A DNA stretch of 64,000 nt, taken from NCBI GenBank assembly GCA_021157525.1, contig JAGGWK010000060.1, positions 11,293 to 75,292 of the forward strand, written 5' to 3'. Position numbers and translations under genes: made by a program. Position 1 is the stretch's first letter; the number at the start of each line of letters is the position of its first letter. Below the pieces are notes generated by a model. That model saw nothing but the letters and a program-made list of their open reading frames with translations. It searched no databases and had not been told where the DNA came from. Below, in pieces: positions 23,946 through 48,483 of the stretch. The DNA comes from Candidatus Cloacimonadota bacterium (lineage in GTDB: Bacteria; Cloacimonadota; Cloacimonadia; Cloacimonadales; TCS61).

Positions 23946-24033
23946 GCAGAAGTGGTGGAATTGGCAGACACGCAAGACTAAGGATCTTGTGCCCCTATCG
24001 GGTGTGCGGGTTCAAGTCCCGCCTTCTGTACCA
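23946..24033 (+). tRNA. tRNA-Leu; the anticodon loop CTAAGGA reads as anticodon AAG
   Basis: Hand-folded cloverleaf: acceptor GCAGAAG/CTTCTGT, anticodon stem CAAGA/TCTTG, long variable arm, T-arm GCGGG-TTCAAGT-CCCGC. CCA is encoded. Confidence 0.85.
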
Positions 24034-30645: not shown

Positions 30646-30719
30646 TGGTTGGGCTAGAAGGAGTTGAACCCTCACATACGGAACCAGAATCCGCTGTACT
30701 ACCATTATACTATAGCCCA
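30646..30719 (-). tRNA. tRNA-Gln (anticodon CTG)
   Basis: Hand fold: acceptor TGGGCTA/TAGCCCA (U1-A72 as in bacterial tRNA-Gln), anticodon loop TTCTGGT, T-loop TTCAACT. CCA is encoded. Confidence 0.85.
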
Positions 30720-30727
30720 GAGAAACA

Positions 30728-30802
30728 TGGTTGGGCCGGGAGGATTCGAACCCCCGCATACATGGACCAAAACCATGTGTCTTACCACTTGACGACGGCC
30801 CA
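30728..30802 (-). tRNA. tRNA-Gln (anticodon TTG)
   Basis: Hand fold: acceptor TGGGCCG/CGGCCCA, anticodon stem CATGG/CCATG with loop TTTTGGT, T-loop TTCGAAT. CCA is encoded. Confidence 0.85.
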
Positions 30803-30825
30803 ACAAAACTTCTCAAAAATATAGC

Positions 30826-30916
<91 letters not shown>

Positions 30917-30933
30917 AAAATAGCAAAGATCAA

Positions 30934-31019
30934 TGGCGGAGGATGAGGGACTCGAACCCCCAAGGGCATAGCCCGGCGGTTTTCAAGACCGCTGCCTTAC
31001 CAATTAGGACTAATCCTCC
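30934..31019 (-). tRNA. tRNA-Ser (anticodon TGA)
   Basis: Hand fold: acceptor GGAGGAT/ATCCTCC, anticodon stem GCGGT/ACCGC with loop CTTGAAA, long variable arm. CCA is encoded. Confidence 0.85.
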
Positions 31020-32987: not shown

Positions 32988-33791
32988 CTATCCCTTTAAA
33001 ATAACGATGGAAACGATCGAAATCACCCAGCAATAATAGGCAAAATACTTCAGTTTGTTCTTTGCCACCAGATTGATAAGCCATGAGATAACGGCATAGC
33101 CAGAGATGCCGGCTGCAACGCTTCCCGCCATATAATTAAGCAGGGTTGCCGAAGGCAACGCCGTAAGCTCTGGTAACTTGGTAATTGTCGCTCCCAGAAT
33201 TGCAGGAATGGATATCAGGAAGGAGAAGCGGGCAGCCGAACGGCGATCCAGCCCCAGATACACAGAGGTGGCAATAGTGGTGCCAGAACGGGAAATCCCC
33301 GGCAACAAAGCCACAGATTGTCCTAATCCGATAACCACACTGCGCCATAAGCCCATCTTGTCTGCCGGAATCCCTTTGCTGGGAACCAGATCGGAAATAA
33401 ACAGAATGGCCCCGGTGACTGAAAGCAAAACGGCAGCATAGATGGGATGTTCAAAAGCTGCATCCACCCTGTCTGACAGCAGAAAATAGATCACGCCCGT
33501 AACCGCCGTGGCAACAATGAGATAAAGCAGTATCAACCGGTTCTTCCGATGAGCGGGAGCAGGATTTTTTATAGCCACCAGCGAACCGGCCATTCCCAGA
33601 AGGTCTTTAAAAAAATAGACCAATACGGCAATAAGGGAGCCAAAATGTACGATCACTTCAAAACTGATCCCCGGATCCTGGATGTGCATAAAACGTTGCA
33701 CCAAGACCAGATGGCCAGAGCTGCTCACGGGCAAAAACTCGGTAAGGCCCTGAATGATCCCTAAAAGGATCGCTTGTAACGTCGTCATCAT
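32988..33791 (-). CDS. uppP: undecaprenyl-diphosphate phosphatase
   Basis: It has BacA/UppP motifs (QGLTEFLPVSSSGH, PGISRSG) and 8 TM segments. Confidence 0.92.
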   Translation of the reverse strand: MMTTLQAILLGIIQGLTEFLPVSSSGHLVLVQRFMHIQDPGISFEVIVHFGSLIAVLVYFFKDLLGMAGSLVAIKNPAPAHRKNRLILLYLIVATAVTGVIYFLLSDRVDAAFEHPIYAAVLLSVTGAILFISDLVPSKGIPADKMGLWRSVVIGLGQSVALLPGISRSGTTIATSVYLGLDRRSAARFSFLISIPAILGATITKLPELTALPSATLLNYMAGSVAAGISGYAVISWLINLVAKNKLKYFAYYCWVISIVSIVILKG

Positions 33792-34984
33792 GATATCTCC
33801 GGAACTGCTGAGCGGAAAAGCTCAGAGGCAGGGATTAACTGGATGTCCATTCCATCCAGCTTCTTCAGAAACTTTTTCAAATAATCATACCGTTCGCGGG
33901 TTGTACAATGGGTTATCACCACAATCTTATCTTTCTTTTTCATCAATATTTTTATCTTTTCCATTTTTTTATTCAGCGTAGCGTCGCTGTGGTCCGGTGC
34001 ATCCAGAAAAATATCCCGTCGAATGCTGGGGATCAGCATTTCCTGAGCTGTCTGAAAGGCTACAGATGATGAGGTGGTAAAGCTGTCGATAAAAAACATG
34101 CTATGCCGTTTCAGCACCTCCAGCACGGTGGTCATCACCTGTTTATCGGCAGTGGCCAGGGAGCCCATGTGGTTATTTGCCCCGATGCAATAGGGCAGTT
34201 CTTTCATATAATTTTGCACCCGTCGCACGATTTCTTTTTGGGTAAGATGCACATAAATCGCTTCTTTGCCAGGATTGTTTTTGGGGTAGCTGACAGGCTC
34301 CATAGGCATGTGGATAATGCTCTCGTGGCCACTGTTATATGCGGCATCCATGGCATCCCGTGAGTGAGCAAGGTGCGGCATAATGGCAAAGGTTATTGCC
34401 GGATCGAGGGCACAAAAATCCTGCAACAATTGCCCATCGAAATTGCCAAAGTCATCCACGATTATCGCCAGTTTTGTTTTATCGGATGCCTGTTTCTGTT
34501 GCTTTGTGTAGTATAGTTTCACCACGTAAGTTATCTTATTTTCAGTATCTTTGTAGGTGAGAAGCTGGGTCGATCCGTTGTACAATTCCTTGCCCGTAAG
34601 CAACTCGCCTCCCGCCATTTCTATCTGGCCGGTGATCACCATATTGGCATAATTCAGATCCGAAATTTTTCCATCTATACCGATGTACACGTACACCTTA
34701 TTGTCCTTCACTCGGGTGGAATAATAGTCATCCGGTACACTGAGGCTCTTGCGGGCATGGTCTATGGCATCCTGGATGGACGCTTTTTCTTCTATCTCAG
34801 TAGGGGTTACAGAGGTTTTGGCTTTGGGAGTGAAATTGATATCGTAGCGACTGATGAAGAAGTAGAGTGCAAACAGTAATATCAGGGCAACCAAAAAGAT
34901 CAGGGCGGAAGCAGAGGATCCGGCCTTCTTTTTCGTCTGTTTTTTCTTTTTCTTCGGGCTTGGTTTTTTCTTCTTTACTGCCAT
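33788..34984 (-). CDS. divergent polysaccharide deacetylase family protein (YibQ-like) with a Lys-rich N-terminus and TM anchor
   Basis: It has LAIIVDDFG, FAIMPH and IIHMPME motifs. I moved the start to ATG 34984 (GAGGAGATT RBS). Confidence 0.75.
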   Translation of the reverse strand: MAVKKKKPSPKKKKKQTKKKAGSSASALIFLVALILLFALYFFISRYDINFTPKAKTSVTPTEIEEKASIQDAIDHARKSLSVPDDYYSTRVKDNKVYVYIGIDGKISDLNYANMVITGQIEMAGGELLTGKELYNGSTQLLTYKDTENKITYVVKLYYTKQQKQASDKTKLAIIVDDFGNFDGQLLQDFCALDPAITFAIMPHLAHSRDAMDAAYNSGHESIIHMPMEPVSYPKNNPGKEAIYVHLTQKEIVRRVQNYMKELPYCIGANNHMGSLATADKQVMTTVLEVLKRHSMFFIDSFTTSSSVAFQTAQEMLIPSIRRDIFLDAPDHSDATLNKKMEKIKILMKKKDKIVVITHCTTRERYDYLKKFLKKLDGMDIQLIPASELFRSAVPEIS

Positions 34985-35136
34985 AATCTCCTCAGACTTT
35001 TTTGGGGACTTCATGGTGAGCCCTCTGGTGCGTCAAGCAAAAAGAGCAAATAGGATAAATGGAAAAGCAAAACCTTGACGCCTGAAAGGGTATAAATAAT
35101 TTCCAGCAAATTCCGTGAAAGGAGACGCAGCTGAGA

Positions 35137-35994
35137 ATGGAAAGATCCGCACCAACACAGAATCGGCTTTCAGGCATCGTGATTGCACTGATTATCTCGC
35201 TGTTGCTGCACCTATTGGTCATTGTGGTGATCTCCTTTTTGCAAACCGATTTCCTTCATCATTTTGTGCAGGATGTACCATTGGTACCGCCATCCCGGGA
35301 AAAACCGCTGGTTTTCGAGTTGGTAGAAACCCCGGATGTTCCCTCTTCACCACCAGAGCAACCAACCGATCTGGCATCAGATACCGCCACTTCAGCCCGG
35401 GATGCGGTGGACAAACAGCTTCCCATCAGTGATACACCTTATGCCGAAGGAACTGCCAGCACCAGAGATGTCACAGCTCCCGCAAAGCCTGAGAACCAGC
35501 CCCGGGCAGAGCCGTCCAGCGCAACTGCTGCCGTTGAAGGACAGGGGAAAGAAACCGCCACTCCGGCAGAACAGCAGCCGGTAGTAATTCCTCAGATGCT
35601 GGCATCGAATCAGCAGAGTTTTAGAAATCTGCGCTCTGAGGTTGCATCCAGAGGCGGGATGATGTTGAACACCTATCAGTGGAAATATGCACCATACCTG
35701 CTCAAGCTCAAACGGAGAATTTCCGGTAACCTGAGACCGCCCTACGCCTTTACCCGACTGGGCATCATCGGCGGTCAAAACCTTATCCGCTTCCGCATCA
35801 ACCCCGATGGAGCTATTGTGAATGTGACGCTTTTGTGGAGCAATTCCCACGAATCCCTGGAGCAGAGCAGCATAGCAGCCATAGAAAAGTCCCATCCATT
35901 TTTGCCGCTTCCTGCGGGATTTCCCAAAGAATACCTGGAGATAACGGCCCTCTTTACGTACAATAACAAACCACCAACAGAAGGTAGAAAATGA
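35137..35994 (+). CDS. tonB: TonB family energy transducer
   Basis: It has an N-terminal TM, a Pro/Ala/Glu-rich spacer and a C-terminal TonB_C-like domain, and it is followed by exbB-exbD. Confidence 0.75.
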   Translation: MERSAPTQNRLSGIVIALIISLLLHLLVIVVISFLQTDFLHHFVQDVPLVPPSREKPLVFELVETPDVPSSPPEQPTDLASDTATSARDAVDKQLPISDTPYAEGTASTRDVTAPAKPENQPRAEPSSATAAVEGQGKETATPAEQQPVVIPQMLASNQQSFRNLRSEVASRGGMMLNTYQWKYAPYLLKLKRRISGNLRPPYAFTRLGIIGGQNLIRFRINPDGAIVNVTLLWSNSHESLEQSSIAAIEKSHPFLPLPAGFPKEYLEITALFTYNNKPPTEGRK

Positions 35995-36614
35995 AAGAAT
36001 TTATCGCATTACTCCAGCAGGGCGGCATCATTATGTATCCGCTACTGCTCTGCTCGGTGATCTCCCTGGCCATCGTTATCGAGCGCTGTTTTACATTACG
36101 GCACAAGCACATAATCGTTCCGGAGATCGAGAAGGTTGTACGCTCTATTCGCACAGCCGAAGACATCCCGTTGGCACTGAAGGTCTGTAGTCAGAACAAA
36201 GGGCCCTTTGCCGCTATTATGCGGGTAGGACTGGAGAATCACACCCTCCCCGCTGCGATTCTCAAAGAGGAAATCACCAACCACGGACGCCAGCAGGTAC
36301 GGGTGCTGGAGCGGGGATTGGTGGTATTGGAAACCGTTGCTGCGGTGAGTCCCATCCTGGGCTTGCTGGGAACGGTGGTAGGGATGATCAAAGTGTTTAA
36401 AGTCATCTCCTTGCAAGGTGTGGGAGAAGCATCCGCTCTATCGGGGGGTATTTCCGAAGCACTCATCACCACAGCAGCAGGTTTGACAGTGGCCATCCCG
36501 ACCGTGATATTTTATAATTTTCTCTCCCAGAAAGCCGAGAACCTGATAATGGACATTGAGGATAATGCCAACAATCTGGTGCGGACGATTCGAGAGTTTT
36601 CCAAGGATGCATGA
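35991..36614 (+). CDS. exbB: MotA/TolQ/ExbB proton-channel protein
   Basis: It has 3 TM helices and the conserved segment LGLLGTVVGMI...ALITTAAGL. It overlaps tonB by 4 nt. Confidence 0.88.
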   Translation: MKEFIALLQQGGIIMYPLLLCSVISLAIVIERCFTLRHKHIIVPEIEKVVRSIRTAEDIPLALKVCSQNKGPFAAIMRVGLENHTLPAAILKEEITNHGRQQVRVLERGLVVLETVAAVSPILGLLGTVVGMIKVFKVISLQGVGEASALSGGISEALITTAAGLTVAIPTVIFYNFLSQKAENLIMDIEDNANNLVRTIREFSKDA

Positions 36615-37012
36615 TGAATTTTCGTGAAAAGAAGAGACGTAACGTCACTATCAATATCACTTCCCTCATCGACGTGGTATTGCTGTTGCTCATCTTTTTC
36701 ATGCTTACCACCACCTTTTCCGAGCAGCCGGGGATGAAGCTGGAATTGCCGGAAGCCAAGAGTTTTGGAACCCAGCGATTTTCTCAGTTGGAAGTTTCCA
36801 TCGGTGCTGATGGCACTCTCGTCCTCAATGGCAACAAGATTGCCACCGAGGATTTGAAGCAGGCAATCACCGACCTGGTTCCTCAGATCGAAGAAAAAAC
36901 CATCATCCTGCGGGCTGATAAAGCGGTGCAACACGGTGTGGTGGTGATGGTGATGGATGTGGCCCGCAGTGCAGGAATAGAAAAGGTGGTAATCGCAGCA
37001 AAACCCCGATAA
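36611..37012 (+). CDS. exbD: ExbD/TolR biopolymer transport protein
   Basis: The N-terminus is INITSLIDVVLLLLIFFM, and the C-terminal region (ILRADKAVQHGVVVMVMD) is periplasmic. It overlaps exbB by 4 nt. Confidence 0.88.
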   Translation: MMNFREKKRRNVTINITSLIDVVLLLLIFFMLTTTFSEQPGMKLELPEAKSFGTQRFSQLEVSIGADGTLVLNGNKIATEDLKQAITDLVPQIEEKTIILRADKAVQHGVVVMVMDVARSAGIEKVVIAAKPR

Positions 37013-37312: not shown

Positions 37313-38290
37313 CTATTTAAATTCCCAGACGAAGGGATCCGGGCTATTGAATACAAAACGTTTCAGATAGGAAATCATGGTGTGGAGATCATAACCTGCA
37401 GGCACCACAAAGTAATCGTATTTGGCGACGAGAGCGGCAAATTCGGCATTTTCCATGAGGGCTGCATCGACGAAATAGATACCATGGCCAGGAAGGCTTA
37501 AGTCGGATGCATCCGTTGGCTCCACCTGACGATACAACACAACGTCCTGCTCTTTCAGCAGCTCTTCTTTGAGATGAGAAAAGTATTGGCCGTTGGATGG
37601 AGTAGCCAACACCACCAGTTGCTGCCCTGGTCGGAAGACATCAATGAGACGCTGTTGTTCCTCTGGAGCACTGGTGTCGGAAAGACCTGCCAGACCCCGC
37701 ACACCGCTCACGATAAACCATAGGGCAATAAGCACCGAGGCGATGCGTCCGATGAGTTTCAGCTCTTTTACTTTACTGAAAAAACCCACAAATCCCATGG
37801 GAACGAGGTATAATGTGGTGCCCAGAAAAAAGCCGAAAAAGAGGGTTGCGCCGTTTATGGGCCCCCCGAGATTCACCGCTTTTGAGAGAGCAATAAGAAA
37901 GGATGGACAGAAATTTACTCCCGTGAGCACCCCCAGCAAAAAAGCGCTTTTGGTGATGTTTGCCATCTTCGGAATGTGACATTTTTTTGCTTTTTGATGG
38001 GATCGTACTGCGGTGAGCAGCAGATACAATGAGAGTAAAATATAGGCAATGGATGTGAAAAACGTTCGGTTGATTTCGGTGATATTTTTGCCCAGATAGC
38101 CAGCGACAGCACCAAACGCCAAGTAGGTAAAGAAGCGGCCCAGAGAAATTTCCATTACCGCAAGGAAGGTTTTACCCACTTTTTTGTCATCGCTCAGGAG
38201 ATAGGGCAGGTAAATGGGTGAGCAGGTTGCCAGACACACCACCCCCGTGGCCAGTCCTAAACCCCAGCCTTCGATCAAACTTTGTATCAT
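37313..38290 (-). CDS. DsbD_2/CcdA-type polytopic membrane protein with a ~110-aa C-terminal soluble extension
   Basis: It has six predicted TMs. Cys lie in TM1 (VCLATCSPIYLP) and TM4 (VNFCPSF), as in thiol-disulfide electron-transfer membrane proteins. It is the last gene of the ferredoxin/FN3 operon. Confidence 0.65.
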   Translation of the reverse strand: MIQSLIEGWGLGLATGVVCLATCSPIYLPYLLSDDKKVGKTFLAVMEISLGRFFTYLAFGAVAGYLGKNITEINRTFFTSIAYILLSLYLLLTAVRSHQKAKKCHIPKMANITKSAFLLGVLTGVNFCPSFLIALSKAVNLGGPINGATLFFGFFLGTTLYLVPMGFVGFFSKVKELKLIGRIASVLIALWFIVSGVRGLAGLSDTSAPEEQQRLIDVFRPGQQLVVLATPSNGQYFSHLKEELLKEQDVVLYRQVEPTDASDLSLPGHGIYFVDAALMENAEFAALVAKYDYFVVPAGYDLHTMISYLKRFVFNSPDPFVWEFK

Positions 38291-38299
38291 AGTTGTTCC

Positions 38300-39427
38300 T
38301 TAATATCTGTAAGCAAGGCTGATGCCGTGGGTAAGCCGATCTTTCACAGTATCCCGCAACAGCACGTCGTAGCGATAGCCGATGCGCAGGGAATCATGCA
38401 GCAAAAAGCCCCCCAGTTCCCCGCTGATACCCATATCGTTCACCGACACATTGCCCAGATAATAGTTGTATTCTGCAAAGAAAACAAGCTGCCACAGGTT
38501 GTACTGCATGTTTGCCTTGAGAAGGGTTTCTTCATCGTAAAAATAGTGTTTGGCAGCCAGCCGGATACGATTGATCCGATTGCCCTCTGTGCTGATGGTG
38601 CGCTGAACGATGGATTCCCCAAAGCTTTTTCCCAGCAGCATTTCGTTGTTTTCGGTATCGTACCAGTTTTGGATATCCAGTTTTTGCACCAGCATCCAGT
38701 CTGGATGCAGCTTTGTGCTGAAGCGGGTAGTATAATGCACAAAATAAGGCACGTCGTCATAACGATCCGATTGTCCCAGGATGAGCTGCTGCTGCCAGAT
38801 GTGAGGACGTCCAAAGTAGTGCATCGTCTGTATCCCGGCACCGGCGGTATAGTAGTTAAAAACGTCTTCCTCATTCAAATCGTCGAAATGCTCAAGGGCG
38901 ATTACCGGCATCCAGGTATCGCTTTGCATCCAGGTAAGAGTCACATTGTTGCGGGTATCGAACTCGGTAATATCTTCGTCGCCGGAGTAATCGCGGATAT
39001 TGTAGCGCAGGTTTGCATCCATCAGAAGGTTCCCCACCTGATAGTGAATATTGGCGCCGAGGCCCCAGCCATTTTCCAGCAGGTATTCGCCATTAACACC
39101 GCCGACGTGGGATGGGAAATTATCTGCCGGAGAGAGTTGAACGCTGCCGAAAAATTGAACCATCCCGCCGGATAATGTACGGGTGAGGGATAGTTTGTTA
39201 CGCAGATAGTTGCGTAGATAGGTCTCTTCCAGAGTCTCTGTTTCTTCGCTGAATTTGGCAAAGGTGATGTTATCGATCTGCCATTGGCCAAATTTTTGCG
39301 TGATATAGGAGGTCATCCGAGAAGAAAAGCCCTCTTGGTTATCGGAGACAACGGAGACGGAAATCTGCTGAAGGGCCGAGAGGGAAAGCATCCCAAAAAG
39401 AATACTAAAAAGAAAGGACTGGCGCAT
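38300..39427 (-). CDS. predicted outer-membrane beta-barrel protein
   Basis: It has a signal peptide (MRQSFLFSILFGMLSLSALQ), alternating aromatic/polar strands and a C-terminal ...HGISLAYRY beta-signal. I moved the start to ATG 39427 (AAGGAG RBS). Confidence 0.65.
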   Translation of the reverse strand: MRQSFLFSILFGMLSLSALQQISVSVVSDNQEGFSSRMTSYITQKFGQWQIDNITFAKFSEETETLEETYLRNYLRNKLSLTRTLSGGMVQFFGSVQLSPADNFPSHVGGVNGEYLLENGWGLGANIHYQVGNLLMDANLRYNIRDYSGDEDITEFDTRNNVTLTWMQSDTWMPVIALEHFDDLNEEDVFNYYTAGAGIQTMHYFGRPHIWQQQLILGQSDRYDDVPYFVHYTTRFSTKLHPDWMLVQKLDIQNWYDTENNEMLLGKSFGESIVQRTISTEGNRINRIRLAAKHYFYDEETLLKANMQYNLWQLVFFAEYNYYLGNVSVNDMGISGELGGFLLHDSLRIGYRYDVLLRDTVKDRLTHGISLAYRY

Positions 39428-39437
39428 TGGGGCTCCT

Positions 39438-39683
39438 TTAGTGGATGGCGTTTTCCGGACAGACGTCGGCGCACTTGCCACAGGATACGCATTTGCTTGA
39501 GATAATAACGGGTTTATCGCCGTCGTAATCGATGGCGTTGTGGGGGCATACGTCGTAGCATTGGCCGCAGGCAACGCAGGATGTTTCATCTATTTCGTAG
39601 CTGGCGCCGGTGAGCTTTTTGCAGCTAATGAAGAAGAGCCCTAACATCAACAGTACCAGCAGGATGGGTAAAATTCGTTTCAT
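39438..39683 (-). CDS. small lipoprotein-type 2x[4Fe-4S] ferredoxin-domain protein
   Basis: I moved the start to ATG 39683 (AGGAG RBS). It has a signal peptide with a lipobox-like FFIS|C, then CVACGQCYDVCP and CVSCGKCADVCP. Confidence 0.7.
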   Translation of the reverse strand: MKRILPILLVLLMLGLFFISCKKLTGASYEIDETSCVACGQCYDVCPHNAIDYDGDKPVIISSKCVSCGKCADVCPENAIH

Positions 39684-39691
39684 GGATACTC

Positions 39692-39925
39692 CTACTTTAT
39701 GGCGTTGTATGTACAGGTGGTGATGCACATTTTGCAGTCGATGCAGACATCGGTATCGATCACCGCTTTGCCATTTTGCAGACTGATAGCCTGGACGGGA
39801 CAGTAATTGACACAATCGCCACAGCCGACACAGCTTTGTTTGGAAACCTCCGGCTTGCTCTGAACCATGGCAAACAGCACGATGGTGGCCAGCAACAATA
39901 TCGCTATCACTACGTTCTTTTTCAT
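39692..39925 (-). CDS. small signal-anchored 2x[4Fe-4S] ferredoxin-domain protein
   Basis: It has an N-terminal hydrophobic segment (MKKNVVIAILLLATIVLFAMV), then CVGCGDCVNYCP and CIDCKMCITTC. Confidence 0.7.
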   Translation of the reverse strand: MKKNVVIAILLLATIVLFAMVQSKPEVSKQSCVGCGDCVNYCPVQAISLQNGKAVIDTDVCIDCKMCITTCTYNAIK

Positions 39926-39938
39926 CTTATATCCTTTA

Positions 39939-42416
39939 TTAATATTCTACTACTTTCAGTTTTATGGCATTTCGCGGACACCAGCTCACGCAATCACCGC
40001 AGGCTACACAAGCATCGGGATCGATGGTGGCATAGGAGCCGTGGTCAGTGATGGCATCTTCAGGACAGTGACTTACACAGTGGCCGCAGCCATTACAGGG
40101 GGGACGGTTTATCTGGTACACCAGTTTTCCGGCCGGAGAATTTGAGATTTCCGACGTATTCCCATTGTCGTCGGTGGTACGGATGGCGAAGTAGATAACT
40201 TCGCCAGAGTTCAGGCCATTCACGTCGCAGGTTTGTGATGATCCGCCAGCCAGTGGAGCCGGGGGATTGCTGAAGATATTGGCATCATCCCAGTTTGCAT
40301 CGGTGATGGGTTCATCCCAGTACCGGATGTCGTAAATCAGGGCTGTGCCGGTGGTTCCATCATCGCCGGGTGCCGTCCAGCTGATGCGGATAGTGCTGGC
40401 ATTGATTGCCAAACCGGCGACGACAGCCAAATCTGAGATGGTGGCCGGTGGCGTGGTATCTTCGGTAAGCTGGGCGATGGCAATGTTCGAGATGGCCGCC
40501 GCATTGTTATTTTCGTCATAGGCCTTGATGGCAAAATAGTAGTCCATTCCCATGGAGAGACCGGTTACCTGGTAGGTTTCGGCAGAGCCGGATGGAGCCG
40601 GAGCAGGTAGATTGGGCAACAGGTCGGCAGTTTCCCAGTTTGCCTCGGTAATCAGTGCGTTGGATGAGCGAATCTGGTAATGATCGGCAAGGCCGTCCAA
40701 TCCGTCATCTCCCACAGCGCTCCAGCTGAGGGTAATAAAAGAGTCACCTGATTCTGCCGCCAGATCGCCGATAGTGGCGGGTGGTGTAGTATCCTCCAGC
40801 AAGGTGGCAGAGGCATTGTTTGATGCTTCGGAGGTATTTTGAGAATCGTCGGTAGCTCTGATGGCAAAGTAGTACTGGATGCCAGGTTGTGGCACATCGG
40901 TAAGATAGCTTTGCACCGTGCCGGCCACTTGGGGTGCGGGTGGGTTTGGTAATGTGGTGGCATCCTGCCAGTTTGCAGTGGTAATCTGGTTTTCCGAGAT
41001 TTTTATCTCGTAGGAAACCGCCGTTCCTTCATCGCCGTCATCACCGGGAGCTGTCCAATTCAGAGTCATATCGTTCTGGGATGCCGTTACCGCCAGATCA
41101 CTGATAACAGCCGGAGGAACGGTATCGGGGATTTCGGTAGTTTCGCCGGATGGCACGTTGCTCAGGGACGATGCGTTCAGGGCGTCATCCAGTGCGATGA
41201 TGGCAAAATAGTAGGTAGTAAGGGGTTGCAATCCTTCTATCAAAAGTGCTTCGGTAGTGCCGGCTGTCTGAGGTACCATGTTTTGGGGGTAGGCTTCCAG
41301 TGCAGCCCAGTTGTCTGGTGTGATGACCTCGGTATCCACTTTGATGATGTAGGCCGATGCGGTTCCGATATTCTGGTCGTCACCCACAGCGGTCCAGTTC
41401 AGCAGGATGCTGTTCACCGATAGCGAGGCAACAGCCAGGTCGTCAATCGGTGCCGGCGCCATGATATCCCCGATGATCTGAGCCTGTACAACATTGGAGA
41501 TGGCGGCGTAATTGAGGGCATCATCGTAGGCGCGGATGGCAAAATAGTAGTTTTGCTGCAAAGGCAGATCGCTGATGATGAGGGTTTCGGCATCTCCTGC
41601 AGCAGCGGGAACCAGAGACTGGCTGTAGGTGGATGCATCCGGCCAATTGTCTGAAGTGATTTCCTGGGTGCTGTAGCGAATATCATAGCCGGCGGCAAGG
41701 CCTTCCATGGCATCGTCACCTACCGCTGTCCATCCCAGAGTGATGGTGGCTTCGGCAGAAGTTGCCGTAAGGTCTGTGATCTCTGCCGGAGCTGTGGCAT
41801 CGATGATCTCTCCAGCCACCAGGACCTGGCACACCGAGGTGCCGCTGGAGTGGTTCACCTCGTCGAAGGCTTCCAGTTCCACTGATATCTGGGCATTTTG
41901 GGGAAGATCCCGAATAATCCAGTTTTCTTCAAACCCGGCAGGAGAAGGTAGCGGAAGGATAAAATTGTAGGCAATGGGATTGTTCAACGTGTCCCGCAAT
42001 GTAAGGCCATATCGGAAGGAGTTGCCAGATGTTCCGTCATCTCCGGTAGCCACAAACTGTATCTGCACCACGCCGATGGAATCTGAAACGACGGAAAAAG
42101 AATCGATGGCGGCAGGAGCAACGACATCCGGGGTGGTGGTAAAGGCGTCTTCCGGACACTGAAATTGGTCAACACAGCGCATGCACTGTACGCATGCATC
42201 CTGATCGATATAAACGGTAAAGGTGCGGGGATCTTTTTTTATGGCGTCATAGGGACAGGAAAAGTCATCCAGACATTCGTAGCAACCCACGCATCGGGAG
42301 AACTCTACCCGAACCGGTTGTGAATCCGGCCCGACTTTCCGGGCATCATCACTACAGCTGATAACAGTAAAGAAAACAATGACTATCGCTACAACTAACA
42401 AAAAACTCTTATTCAT
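39939..42416 (-). CDS. 825-aa lipoprotein: N-terminal ferredoxin-like Cys domain, six FN3-like repeats, C-terminal 2x[4Fe-4S] ferredoxin domain
   Basis: The start is ATG 42416 (GAGGA RBS; the listed upstream start is TTG). It has lipobox VIS|C and N-terminal CVGCYECLDDFSCP and CVQCMRCVDQFQCP. Six repeats carry W(T/S)A.GDD...Y.IRY...YYFAI. The C-terminus has CNGCGHCVSHCP and CVACGDCVSWCP. Confidence 0.8.
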   Translation of the reverse strand: MNKSFLLVVAIVIVFFTVISCSDDARKVGPDSQPVRVEFSRCVGCYECLDDFSCPYDAIKKDPRTFTVYIDQDACVQCMRCVDQFQCPEDAFTTTPDVVAPAAIDSFSVVSDSIGVVQIQFVATGDDGTSGNSFRYGLTLRDTLNNPIAYNFILPLPSPAGFEENWIIRDLPQNAQISVELEAFDEVNHSSGTSVCQVLVAGEIIDATAPAEITDLTATSAEATITLGWTAVGDDAMEGLAAGYDIRYSTQEITSDNWPDASTYSQSLVPAAAGDAETLIISDLPLQQNYYFAIRAYDDALNYAAISNVVQAQIIGDIMAPAPIDDLAVASLSVNSILLNWTAVGDDQNIGTASAYIIKVDTEVITPDNWAALEAYPQNMVPQTAGTTEALLIEGLQPLTTYYFAIIALDDALNASSLSNVPSGETTEIPDTVPPAVISDLAVTASQNDMTLNWTAPGDDGDEGTAVSYEIKISENQITTANWQDATTLPNPPAPQVAGTVQSYLTDVPQPGIQYYFAIRATDDSQNTSEASNNASATLLEDTTPPATIGDLAAESGDSFITLSWSAVGDDGLDGLADHYQIRSSNALITEANWETADLLPNLPAPAPSGSAETYQVTGLSMGMDYYFAIKAYDENNNAAAISNIAIAQLTEDTTPPATISDLAVVAGLAINASTIRISWTAPGDDGTTGTALIYDIRYWDEPITDANWDDANIFSNPPAPLAGGSSQTCDVNGLNSGEVIYFAIRTTDDNGNTSEISNSPAGKLVYQINRPPCNGCGHCVSHCPEDAITDHGSYATIDPDACVACGDCVSWCPRNAIKLKVVEY
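40122..42131 (-). repeat. tandem array of six ~111-codon FN3-like coding repeats
   Basis: The DNA motif GATGGC(A/G)AA(A/G)TAG(T/A)(A/T) (antisense of YYFAI/IYFAI) starts at 40182, 40527, 40860, 41199 and 41534, a period of 333-345 bp. The first repeat is divergent. Confidence 0.8.
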
Positions 42417-48138: not shown

Positions 48139-48216
48139 TGGGGTGGCTGAGGGGATTCGAACCCCCGACTCCAAGAGCCACAATCTTGTACTCTAACCAA
48201 CTGAGCTACAGCCACC
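48139..48216 (-). tRNA. tRNA-His (anticodon GTG) with an encoded G-1
   Basis: Hand fold: an extra 5' G opposite C73, acceptor GTGGCTG/CAGCCAC, anticodon stem CAAGA/TCTTG with loop TTGTGGC. CCA is encoded. Confidence 0.85.
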
Positions 48217-48229
48217 ATAAAATTACTTA

Positions 48230-48306
48230 TGGTACGCCAGCGGGGACTCGAACCCCAGACCTACGGATTAGAAATCCGTTGCTCTATCCAGCTGAGCTAC
48301 TGGCGC
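48230..48306 (-). tRNA. tRNA-Arg (anticodon TCT)
   Basis: Hand fold: acceptor GCGCCAG/CTGGCGT, anticodon stem ACGGA/TCCGT with loop TTTCTAA. CCA is encoded. Confidence 0.85.
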
Positions 48307-48315
48307 ATAAAAAAA

Positions 48316-48392
48316 TGGTAGCGGCGCAGGGACTTGAACCCCGGACACTCGGATTATGATTCCGATGCTCTAACCAACTGAGCTACGCCGCC
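48316..48392 (-). tRNA. tRNA with anticodon CAT (elongator Met, or Ile2 if lysidine-modified)
   Basis: Hand fold: acceptor GGCGGCG/CGCCGCT, anticodon stem TCGGA/TCCGA with loop ATCATAA. It lacks the 3 G-C initiator signature. CCA is encoded. Confidence 0.8.
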
Positions 48393-48406
48393 ACTCATTA
48401 AAAAAA

Positions 48407-48483
<77 letters not shown>

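Follow-up and report, generated by a model that had tools for sequence, protein, structure and literature searches.

How can a ferredoxin-type protein that carries no twin-arginine motif be exported, and could it hold iron-sulfur (Fe-S) clusters outside the cytoplasm? Periplasmic Fe-S proteins have been stated to be obligately dependent on twin-arginine translocation (Tat) (PMC10924467). The question is raised by two small adjacent genes, here called FdA and FdB, in a 64-kb stretch of DNA from a Candidatus Cloacimonadota bacterium (contig JAGGWK010000060.1, positions 11,293 to 75,292; hereafter the window). An earlier note on this DNA had described their products as two tandem mini-ferredoxins, each a hydrophobic N-terminus followed by an eight-Cys motif, and had seen no twin arginine (RR) at either N-terminus. 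Both statements held: coordinates and translations (Table 1) and Pfam matches agree, and neither N-terminus has an RR. We found that the two genes lie in an operon in which every ferredoxin-domain protein bears a non-Tat N-terminal signal, and that these signals, the operon and its linkage to a membrane protein of the DsbD_2 family are conserved in other lineages.

By sequence, the domains of FdA and FdB are members of the dicluster ferredoxin family. Each domain of about 55 amino acids (aa) holds eight Cys in two Cx2Cx2Cx3C motifs, and the ninth Cys of FdB is Cys21 of its lipobox. Pfam Fer4 families matched the two proteins at E = 1e-12 to 1e-18 and over their gathering scores (FdA against Fer4_6, 51.7 bits with a cut-off of 25; FdB against Fer4, 66.6 bits with a cut-off of 21.1), and NCBIfam returned generic ferredoxin matches, all under the cut-offs. 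A profile built from both proteins matched the clostridial ferredoxins 1FDN and 1CLF in the PDB at about 1e-12 and the polyferredoxin MvhB at 6e-42, as well as the RnfB structures 9ERI_B and 7ZC6_B. When motifs were counted in all six frames of the window, in stop-to-stop open reading frames (ORFs) no shorter than 50 aa, only three ORFs held at least two ferredoxin motifs; because these three adjoin in one operon, the motifs are not a chance occurrence.

The called starts of both genes appear sound. AAGGA stands 6 nucleotides (nt) before the ATG of FdA, and the Shine-Dalgarno sequence of FdB overlaps the FdA stop codon, an arrangement that indicates translational coupling of the two genes. No Shine-Dalgarno sequence was found upstream of the internal Met13 of FdB. 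The NCBI record MCD6182177.1 calls FdB from this Met13 as a 69-aa protein, with loss of the N-terminal (n-) region and half of the hydrophobic (h-) region of the signal; automated annotation can thus hide signals of this kind. Public records label these proteins merely '4Fe-4S binding protein', 'ferredoxin' or 'hypothetical protein'.

The operon comprises five genes, in the order 825-aa lipoprotein, FdA, FdB, outer-membrane-like protein and DsbD_2 protein, with intergenic spacers of 8-13 nt and a Shine-Dalgarno-like sequence 5-7 nt before the ATG of each gene. Three of its products contain ferredoxin domains, four dicluster domains in total, and each of the three has a non-Tat N-terminal signal. 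The earlier note was right about the two small ferredoxins and understated the set, which amounts to four ferredoxin domains on three signal-bearing proteins of a single operon. The largest of these proteins consists of an N-terminal domain of the 2x[4Fe-4S] type, five to six FN3-like repeats (fn3, 7.8e-28) and a C-terminal 2x[4Fe-4S] ferredoxin domain (Fer4_6, 8.8e-16). Its N-terminal domain has the spacing Cx2Cx2Cx5CP, twice, and is a dicluster ferredoxin as well: Fer4 families matched it in 9/9 orthologs, and its profile matched MvhB and RnfB in the PDB. The C-terminal domain of many orthologs has an altered spacing, Cx2Cx2CxCP, in its second motif. A lipobox-type Cys is present in all of the orthologs from loci L009, L012, L013, L025, L028, L035, L036 and L061 (L-numbers denote related loci), and the last four residues of all of them read V-[VH]-[AEV]-Y (VVAY, VVEY or VHVY; the window copy ends ...KVVEY), a terminal motif that looks like a docking or sorting signal.

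We then compared the N-terminal signals across lineages. Orthologs of FdA from seven lineages, down to about 34-65% identity, begin with M-K/R(2-4) followed by an uncharged segment of 18-20 aa, and orthologs of FdB, in 7/7 lineages, show M-K/R, an h-region and a lipobox [ILVF][IA][SGA]C at residue 18-21 (VIGC, IISC, VISC, FAGC and LIAC among the variants). The signal of the window FdB reads MKR, 17 aa and F-I-S-C21. The Phe at -3 of this lipobox is a relaxed variant relative to [LVI][ASTVI][GAS]C, and by its sequence FdB is a predicted lipoprotein and substrate of signal peptidase II. The n-region has a charge of +2 to +4 in all FdA and FdB orthologs and is followed by an uncharged h-region of 15-20 aa, and the eight Cys of the ferredoxin domain are kept across the seven lineages. 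The cleavage-site pattern of FdA is AXA-like in some orthologs (LAVA before S in L007, AGNA before K in L013) and poor in the window copy; FdA may be signal-anchored instead of cleaved.

Neither FdA nor FdB showed the Tat consensus S/T-R-R-x-F-L-K or the weakly hydrophobic h-region of Tat signals when tested for both. The maximum 10-aa Kyte-Doolittle mean is 3.23 for FdA, 3.30 for FdB and 3.80 for the large protein. As a control, the aligned FdA and FdB sequences served as the profile for an exhaustive search, and we classed the best 150 matches by their N-termini. About 40 of these were signal-bearing ferredoxins with a K-type n-region of charge +2 and a median maximum 10-aa hydrophobicity of 3.17, many of them built as ferredoxin, Pro/Thr/Ser/Lys-rich linker and ferredoxin. 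A further 19 were polyferredoxins with textbook RR signals (for example SRRAFL and NRRDFI; median 1.93), and eight were RnfB-type anchors with an uncharged n-region (median charge 0) and K/R after the helix (median 2.58). FdA, FdB and the large protein sort with the signal-bearing class, apart from the RR and RnfB-type classes. Related bacteria place Tat signals on other exported Fe-S proteins, and the lack of RR is a trait of the family and not an annotation artefact.

The earlier note had raised two objections to its own observation, namely that miscalled starts might hide an RR, for which it proposed an alignment of homologs, and that the hydrophobic segment might be an N-out anchor with the ferredoxin domain facing the cytoplasm. 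As far as sequence analysis can tell, neither objection holds. RR was looked for in FdA, FdB and the large protein across the seven lineages and was absent from all. Moreover, when NapH-type ORFs are set aside, the DsbD_2 homologs of the metagenomic loci have 63 distinct ferredoxin ORFs as neighbours; every one of these has an N-terminal hydrophobic signal and 29 have a lipobox-type Cys, and the two with an RR (MPRLNHRRLLVI and MRRRLFFG) do not fit the Tat consensus. Because the signals are conserved and their class separates from Tat-signal and RnfB-type proteins, both miscalled starts and an N-out anchor are unlikely.

The distribution of the system was determined mainly by exhaustive search of representatives and a metagenome scan; word-indexed homolog searches were insensitive (6, 2 and 10 matches), and a scan of GTDB genomes gave one locus. 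The same gene order was found in L007, L008, L009, L012, L013, L014, L015, L082 and L084. L009 is a 57%-identical relative with the same layout, L007 and L008 are short and more divergent contigs, L012 is a GTDB Cloacimonadales genome, and L013, L014 and L015 are complete metagenomic genomes of 3-4 Mb. Anchoring the scan on DsbD_2 recovered 64 metagenomic loci, and same-strand ferredoxin ORFs lie upstream in 30/36 DsbD_2 loci with at least 2.5 kb of upstream sequence. A minimal layout, in which a signal-bearing double ferredoxin directly precedes DsbD_2, occurs in Zixibacteria and other lineages, and the conserved core of the system is therefore the ferredoxin-DsbD_2 pairing. The earlier note had mentioned a DsbD_2-type gene in the operon. 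It is present, and its link to the ferredoxins is more than was claimed, being the most conserved feature of the system.

The DsbD_2 protein matches PF13386 (2.8e-22, 80 bits, cut-off 24.9), a family described as 'cytochrome c biogenesis protein transmembrane region'. With this match, several transmembrane helices (TM) and Cys-Pro motifs in TM1 and TM4, it belongs by sequence to the CcdA/DsbD family. Homologs as distant as 33% identity, 46 distinct sequences in all, share four invariant Cys (C19-x3-C23-x-P25, C104 and C128-P129): C19 and C23 lie in TM1, C104 in the loop between TM3 and TM4, and C128 in TM4. Mean K+R numbers of 2.7, 6.0 and 3.1 in loops 1-2, 3-4 and 5-6, against 0.5, 1.3 and 0.0 elsewhere, give an N-out/C-out topology for the six helices, so that C104 is predicted to be cytoplasmic and the C-terminal domain of about 125 aa periplasmic. 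The profile found no relative in the PDB (kinase noise only, E > 0.02), and neither NCBIfam on the whole protein nor Pfam on its C-terminal domain gave a match. An AlphaFold model from the single sequence had a predicted local distance difference test score (pLDDT) of 49.2, with a beta/alpha C-terminal domain at low confidence. A cytoplasmic-type thioredoxin gene lies directly downstream of DsbD_2 in L013 only. At seven or more loci (Table 1) the cluster is flanked by polytopic membrane proteins of the Fer4_5 family that are NapH-like and have CX3CP motifs; the window has none. The adjacent thioredoxin and the NapH-like proteins indicate redox chemistry.

Both exact Cx2Cx2Cx3C motifs are present in 58/58 distinct small ferredoxin ORFs near DsbD_2 homologs, and the residues around them are conserved too. 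In motif 1, Gly follows Cys2 in 47/58 and Pro follows Cys4 in 53/58, and Ala and Ile stand at +4 and +5 in 56/58 and 54/58, respectively. Neither a disulfide knot nor simple chelation of a metal would call for these second-shell residues; their conservation favours cluster ligation, and we infer selection for binding of [4Fe-4S] clusters.

Several further features point to a location outside the cytoplasm. The place of the large protein is taken in L014 and L015 by a counterpart of 178 aa, which has a Sec-type signal, a dicluster ferredoxin domain (Fer4_7, 29.8 bits), a FlgD-Ig domain and a C-terminal domain for type IX sorting (Por_Secre_tail, 29.8 bits, cut-off 27) and is predicted to be a cell-surface ferredoxin. 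Type IX secretion cargo crosses the inner membrane via the general secretory (Sec) pathway, and FN3 stalks, like low-complexity linkers, are a typical feature of proteins at the surface. The outer-membrane-like protein, predicted to be all-beta, is 365-400 aa long in the related loci examined directly, and its L012 homolog is 25% identical. Neither Pfam nor NCBIfam has a family for it, and its divergent homologs also lack a Pfam match. The ending ...G[ST]xhxF, which is like the beta-signal of outer-membrane proteins, is present in 15 of the 19 homolog ORFs from the loci, a set in which two ORFs belong to the window species; the window copy ends in AYRY. An AlphaFold model from a 10-sequence alignment showed long beta hairpins at a pLDDT of 34.8, too low to call a barrel.

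The reading that we favour, tentatively and with a probability of roughly 0.4, is that the operon specifies an envelope module in which ferredoxin-type proteins are exported without Tat, gain their clusters outside the cytoplasm and form a redox chain from the periplasm to the surface. The three ferredoxin-domain proteins would cross the inner membrane unfolded via Sec, on highly hydrophobic signals of the Lys/Arg type. FdA would end up periplasmic or signal-anchored, FdB would be lipidated at Cys21, and the 825-aa protein would be a lipoprotein displayed on its FN3 stalk, its counterpart elsewhere being type IX secretion cargo. The DsbD_2/CcdA-like protein would keep the eight-Cys motifs reduced by passing reducing power through its four invariant Cys, by the same logic as for Sec-exported apocytochromes c. 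The [4Fe-4S] clusters could then be gained in the periplasm of these strict anaerobes, either spontaneously from Fe(II) and sulfide or by a delivery step, and the holo-proteins, with the beta-barrel-like outer-membrane protein, might constitute a non-heme counterpart of porin-cytochrome conduits. Alternatively, the DsbD_2 protein itself could be the point of electron entry, via its four Cys.

A number of points weigh against this proposal. We know of no periplasmic machinery for Fe-S assembly, and cluster insertion outside the cytoplasm is, to our knowledge, without precedent. The translation of proteins as short as some 80 aa is over before they can be targeted co-translationally, and they could fold with clusters in the cytoplasm, which would block Sec. 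As to the DsbD_2 protein, its C-terminal domain has no conserved Cys, the operon encodes no periplasmic thioredoxin-like partner, and PF13386 also includes putative metal permeases, so that its redox role is only a candidate one. At 375 aa, the outer-membrane protein probably lacks the width to enclose a folded ferredoxin in the way that MtrB encloses MtrA, and electrons cannot pass along the FN3 stalk that separates the ferredoxin domains at the two ends of the large protein. Finally, the DsbD_2 genes of L053, L060 and L066 have no ferredoxin neighbours.

The putative Ni/Co permeases of the DsbD_2 superfamily would be in line with a relay for scavenging and importing metal or Fe-S, an explanation that we consider unlikely. 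Here the exported Cys-rich domains would capture Fe, FeS or another thiophilic metal at the cell surface and in the periplasm and pass it through the outer-membrane protein to DsbD_2, a permease in this reading and not an electron carrier. HMA-domain proteins, a heavy-metal P-type ATPase and an ArsP permease do flank the cluster in L014 and L015, TonB-ExbB-ExbD genes adjoin the operon in the window, and a stalked surface domain is better suited to capture than to wiring. However, the metal-gene context is confined to one lineage, and the TonB adjacency is absent from L013, L014 and L016. The full second-shell signature of ferredoxins would be needless for simple chelation, and the NapH-like and thioredoxin neighbours suggest redox chemistry.

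A little less probable still is that the proteins are exported and remain free of clusters, with the eight Cys forming disulfides or binding Zn in a small, stable, ferredoxin-derived module of structural or adhesive use and DsbD_2 acting as the reductant for isomerisation. This reading has the merit that an apo-protein is what Sec export delivers; DsbD-type proteins usually serve disulfide isomerisation or reduction, and the altered C-terminal spacing in some large proteins would suit it. Against this, all 58 small homologs keep exact motifs together with Gly, Pro and Ala-Ile where cluster ligation typically has them, several loci have NapH-like Fe-S partners in the membrane, and oxidative disulfide formation is unlikely in hosts that are strict anaerobes.

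If instead the clusters were inserted in the cytoplasm and the proteins exported folded, whether by Tat with non-canonical KR or KK signals, by hitch-hiking or by an unknown pathway, extracytoplasmic assembly would no longer be needed. We regard this as improbable. Natural KR variants of Tat signals exist, and FdB of the window begins with MKR, but the KR is not conserved, KK being present in 3/7 FdB orthologs. The h-regions score 3.2-3.8, against the median of 1.93 for Tat-signal polyferredoxins, the Sec dependence of type IX cargo does not agree with folded export, and the operon encodes no RR-bearing protein. Hitch-hikers, moreover, do not normally carry a signal themselves (PMC10924467).

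Least compatible with the data, and very improbable, are N-out anchors as in RnfB with cytoplasmic ferredoxin domains and conventional maturation: the 18-20-aa uncharged segment of FdA would suffice for a TM helix and the charge difference across it is small in some orthologs, but the n-regions are positive in all orthologs where those of the RnfB type have a median charge of 0 and K/R after the helix, the FdB lipobox Cys is conserved, and FN3 stalks, linkers rich in Pro/Thr/Ser and a type IX sorting domain are found on sister proteins.

Comparison with known systems places the proposed envelope module among familiar parts. Clostridial-type 2x[4Fe-4S] ferredoxins (1FDN, 1CLF) and polyferredoxins (MvhB, FwdF) have in common with FdA and FdB a domain of some 55 aa in which two Cx2Cx2Cx3CP motifs are accompanied by Gly, Pro and Ala-Ile at the canonical places; they are cytoplasmic and signal-less, whereas the FdA/FdB system has targeting elements of the Sec, lipoprotein or type IX kind. 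The Tat-dependent proteins NapG, NrfC, HybA and DsrO and the RR-signal lipoprotein polyferredoxins likewise have ferredoxin domains predicted to lie outside the cytoplasmic membrane. Some members of both groups are lipoproteins, and both have NapH-like partners at some loci; the Tat proteins, however, carry S/T-R-R-x-F-L-K and a weak h-region in place of the K-type n-region and the h-region values of 3.2-3.3 seen in FdA and FdB. RnfB also has a hydrophobic N-terminal segment followed by [4Fe-4S] domains, and differs in its uncharged n-region, its cytoplasm-facing orientation and the lack of a lipobox.

The operon logic resembles that of the MtrCAB porin-cytochrome conduits, with periplasmic redox protein(s), a barrel-like outer-membrane protein and a surface lipoprotein with redox domains. 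The likeness is a functional analogy only, with haem set against putative Fe-S and a barrel of about half the size of MtrB; no CxxCH haem motif was found in the operon, and no ORF of the window has two or more. Cytochrome c maturation by CcdA/DsbD similarly pairs a Sec-exported apoprotein with Cys motifs and a membrane protein of the CcdA/DsbD superfamily. There the cofactor is haem and the membrane protein has two Cys, whereas the present DsbD_2 subfamily has four invariant Cys and a Cys-poor periplasmic domain.

No description of Sec- or lipoprotein-targeted ferredoxins was found in the open-access literature, which is absence of evidence and not proof of novelty, and the conserved five-gene envelope system appears to be undescribed so far. 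That it represents a Tat-independent extracytoplasmic Fe-S route in Cloacimonadota, Zixibacteria and related anaerobes, combining Sec, lipoprotein and type IX export, DsbD_2-aided maturation and a haem-free conduit to the surface, is possible, although on balance we doubt it. Genuine installation of clusters outside the cytoplasm would make the system categorically new. Current doctrine has periplasmic Fe-S proteins fold in the cytoplasm and leave by Tat (PMC10924467). A conserved gene cluster of several phyla, with canonical dicluster ferredoxin domains behind Sec, lipoprotein and type IX signals, implies either that extracytoplasmic installation of Fe-S clusters is possible or that an unknown export route exists; either outcome would alter the prediction of exported redox proteins from genomes. 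The system could also reveal cytochrome-free extracellular or interspecies electron transfer in abundant uncultured bacteria of anaerobic digesters and sediments, and provides a candidate function for an uncharacterised DsbD_2 subfamily and for an outer-membrane protein that belongs to no family.

Table 1. Positions of the operon, its genes and other features in the window and in related loci.
Feature	Sequence	Positions	Strand	Length	Details
Five-gene operon	window	37313-42416	minus		
Large ('Big') protein	window	39939-42416	minus	825 aa	lipoprotein-type signal MNKSFLLVVAIVIVFFTVISC, then SDD
FdA	window	39692-39925	minus	77 aa	MKKNVVIAILLLATIVLFAMVQSKPEVSKQSCVGCGDCVNYCPVQAISLQNGKAVIDTDVCIDCKMCITTCTYNAIK; MKK, 20-aa uncharged hydrophobic segment, 8-Cys dicluster ferredoxin domain
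Shine-Dalgarno AGGAG of FdB	window	39689-39693	minus		5 nt before FdB ATG
FdB	window	39438-39683	minus	81 aa	MKRILPILLVLLMLGLFFISCKKLTGASYEIDETSCVACGQCYDVCPHNAIDYDGDKPVIISSKCVSCGKCADVCPENAIH; MKR, h-region, lipobox F-I-S-C21 then KK, 8-Cys dicluster ferredoxin domain
Outer-membrane-like protein	window	38300-39427	minus	375 aa	signal peptide MRQSFLFSILFGMLSLSALQ; ends ...SLAYRY
DsbD_2-family membrane protein	window	37313-38290	minus	325 aa	PF13386
TonB-ExbB-ExbD genes	window	35137-37012	plus		converge on operon end
Polysacc_deac_2 gene	window	33788-35014	minus		
Polysacc_deac_2 gene	L016	9721-10770			
tRNA cluster	window	30646-31019	minus		Gln, Gln, Ser, Ser
tRNA cluster	window	48139-48483	minus		His, Arg, Met, Met
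tRNA-Leu	window	23946-24033			
178-aa counterpart of large protein	L014	5206-5739		178 aa	same positions in L015
Heavy-metal genes flanking the cluster	L014/L015	2022-4475, 10660-11929			HMA-domain heavy-metal P-type ATPase, ArsP_1 permease, small HMA protein
NapH-like Fer4_5 protein	L013	5114-5914	minus		
NapH-like Fer4_5 proteins	L028, L036, L044, L052, L061, L070				
Mrp/ApbC/NUBPL-type Fe-S carrier ATPase	L082	4072-4986			PF10609
Mrp/ApbC/NUBPL-type Fe-S carrier ATPase	L084	2-751			PF10609
Flavoprotein upstream of DsbD_2 homolog	L053 and L066	5466-7961		831 aa	cytoplasmic-type
DsbD_2 homolog	L016	8510-9519			two overlapping ORFs

Other observations concern the neighbourhood of the operon and its relatives. 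Scans for promoters and terminators gave chance-level results only. An Fe-S carrier ATPase of the Mrp/ApbC type was considered as a core component and rejected, as it is a neighbour in L082 and L084 only, which represent one lineage; there it lies 15-50 nt upstream of the operon, matches PF10609 at 1e-88 and has a CPHC motif. The adjacency of the TonB-ExbB-ExbD genes is kept within the window species. In both the window and L016, a contig of Zixibacteria type, a Polysacc_deac_2 gene lies close to the DsbD_2 gene, which may be residual synteny. The two overlapping ORFs of the L016 DsbD_2 homolog result from a frameshift or an assembly error, and the gene before the double ferredoxin of that contig is HypE-like and ends in PRIC. 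The flavoprotein directly upstream of the DsbD_2 homolog in L053 and L066, where no exported ferredoxin is near, resembles dihydropyrimidine dehydrogenase and glutamate synthase and has a C-terminal ferredoxin domain; these loci are an exception to the ferredoxin-DsbD_2 pairing. The RR class of the control search (among P0013-P0145) consists of 270-400-aa polyferredoxins from Bacteroidales, Gemmatimonadota and Latescibacterota, many with a lipobox Cys after the signal, which are predicted to be Tat-dependent Fe-S lipoproteins.

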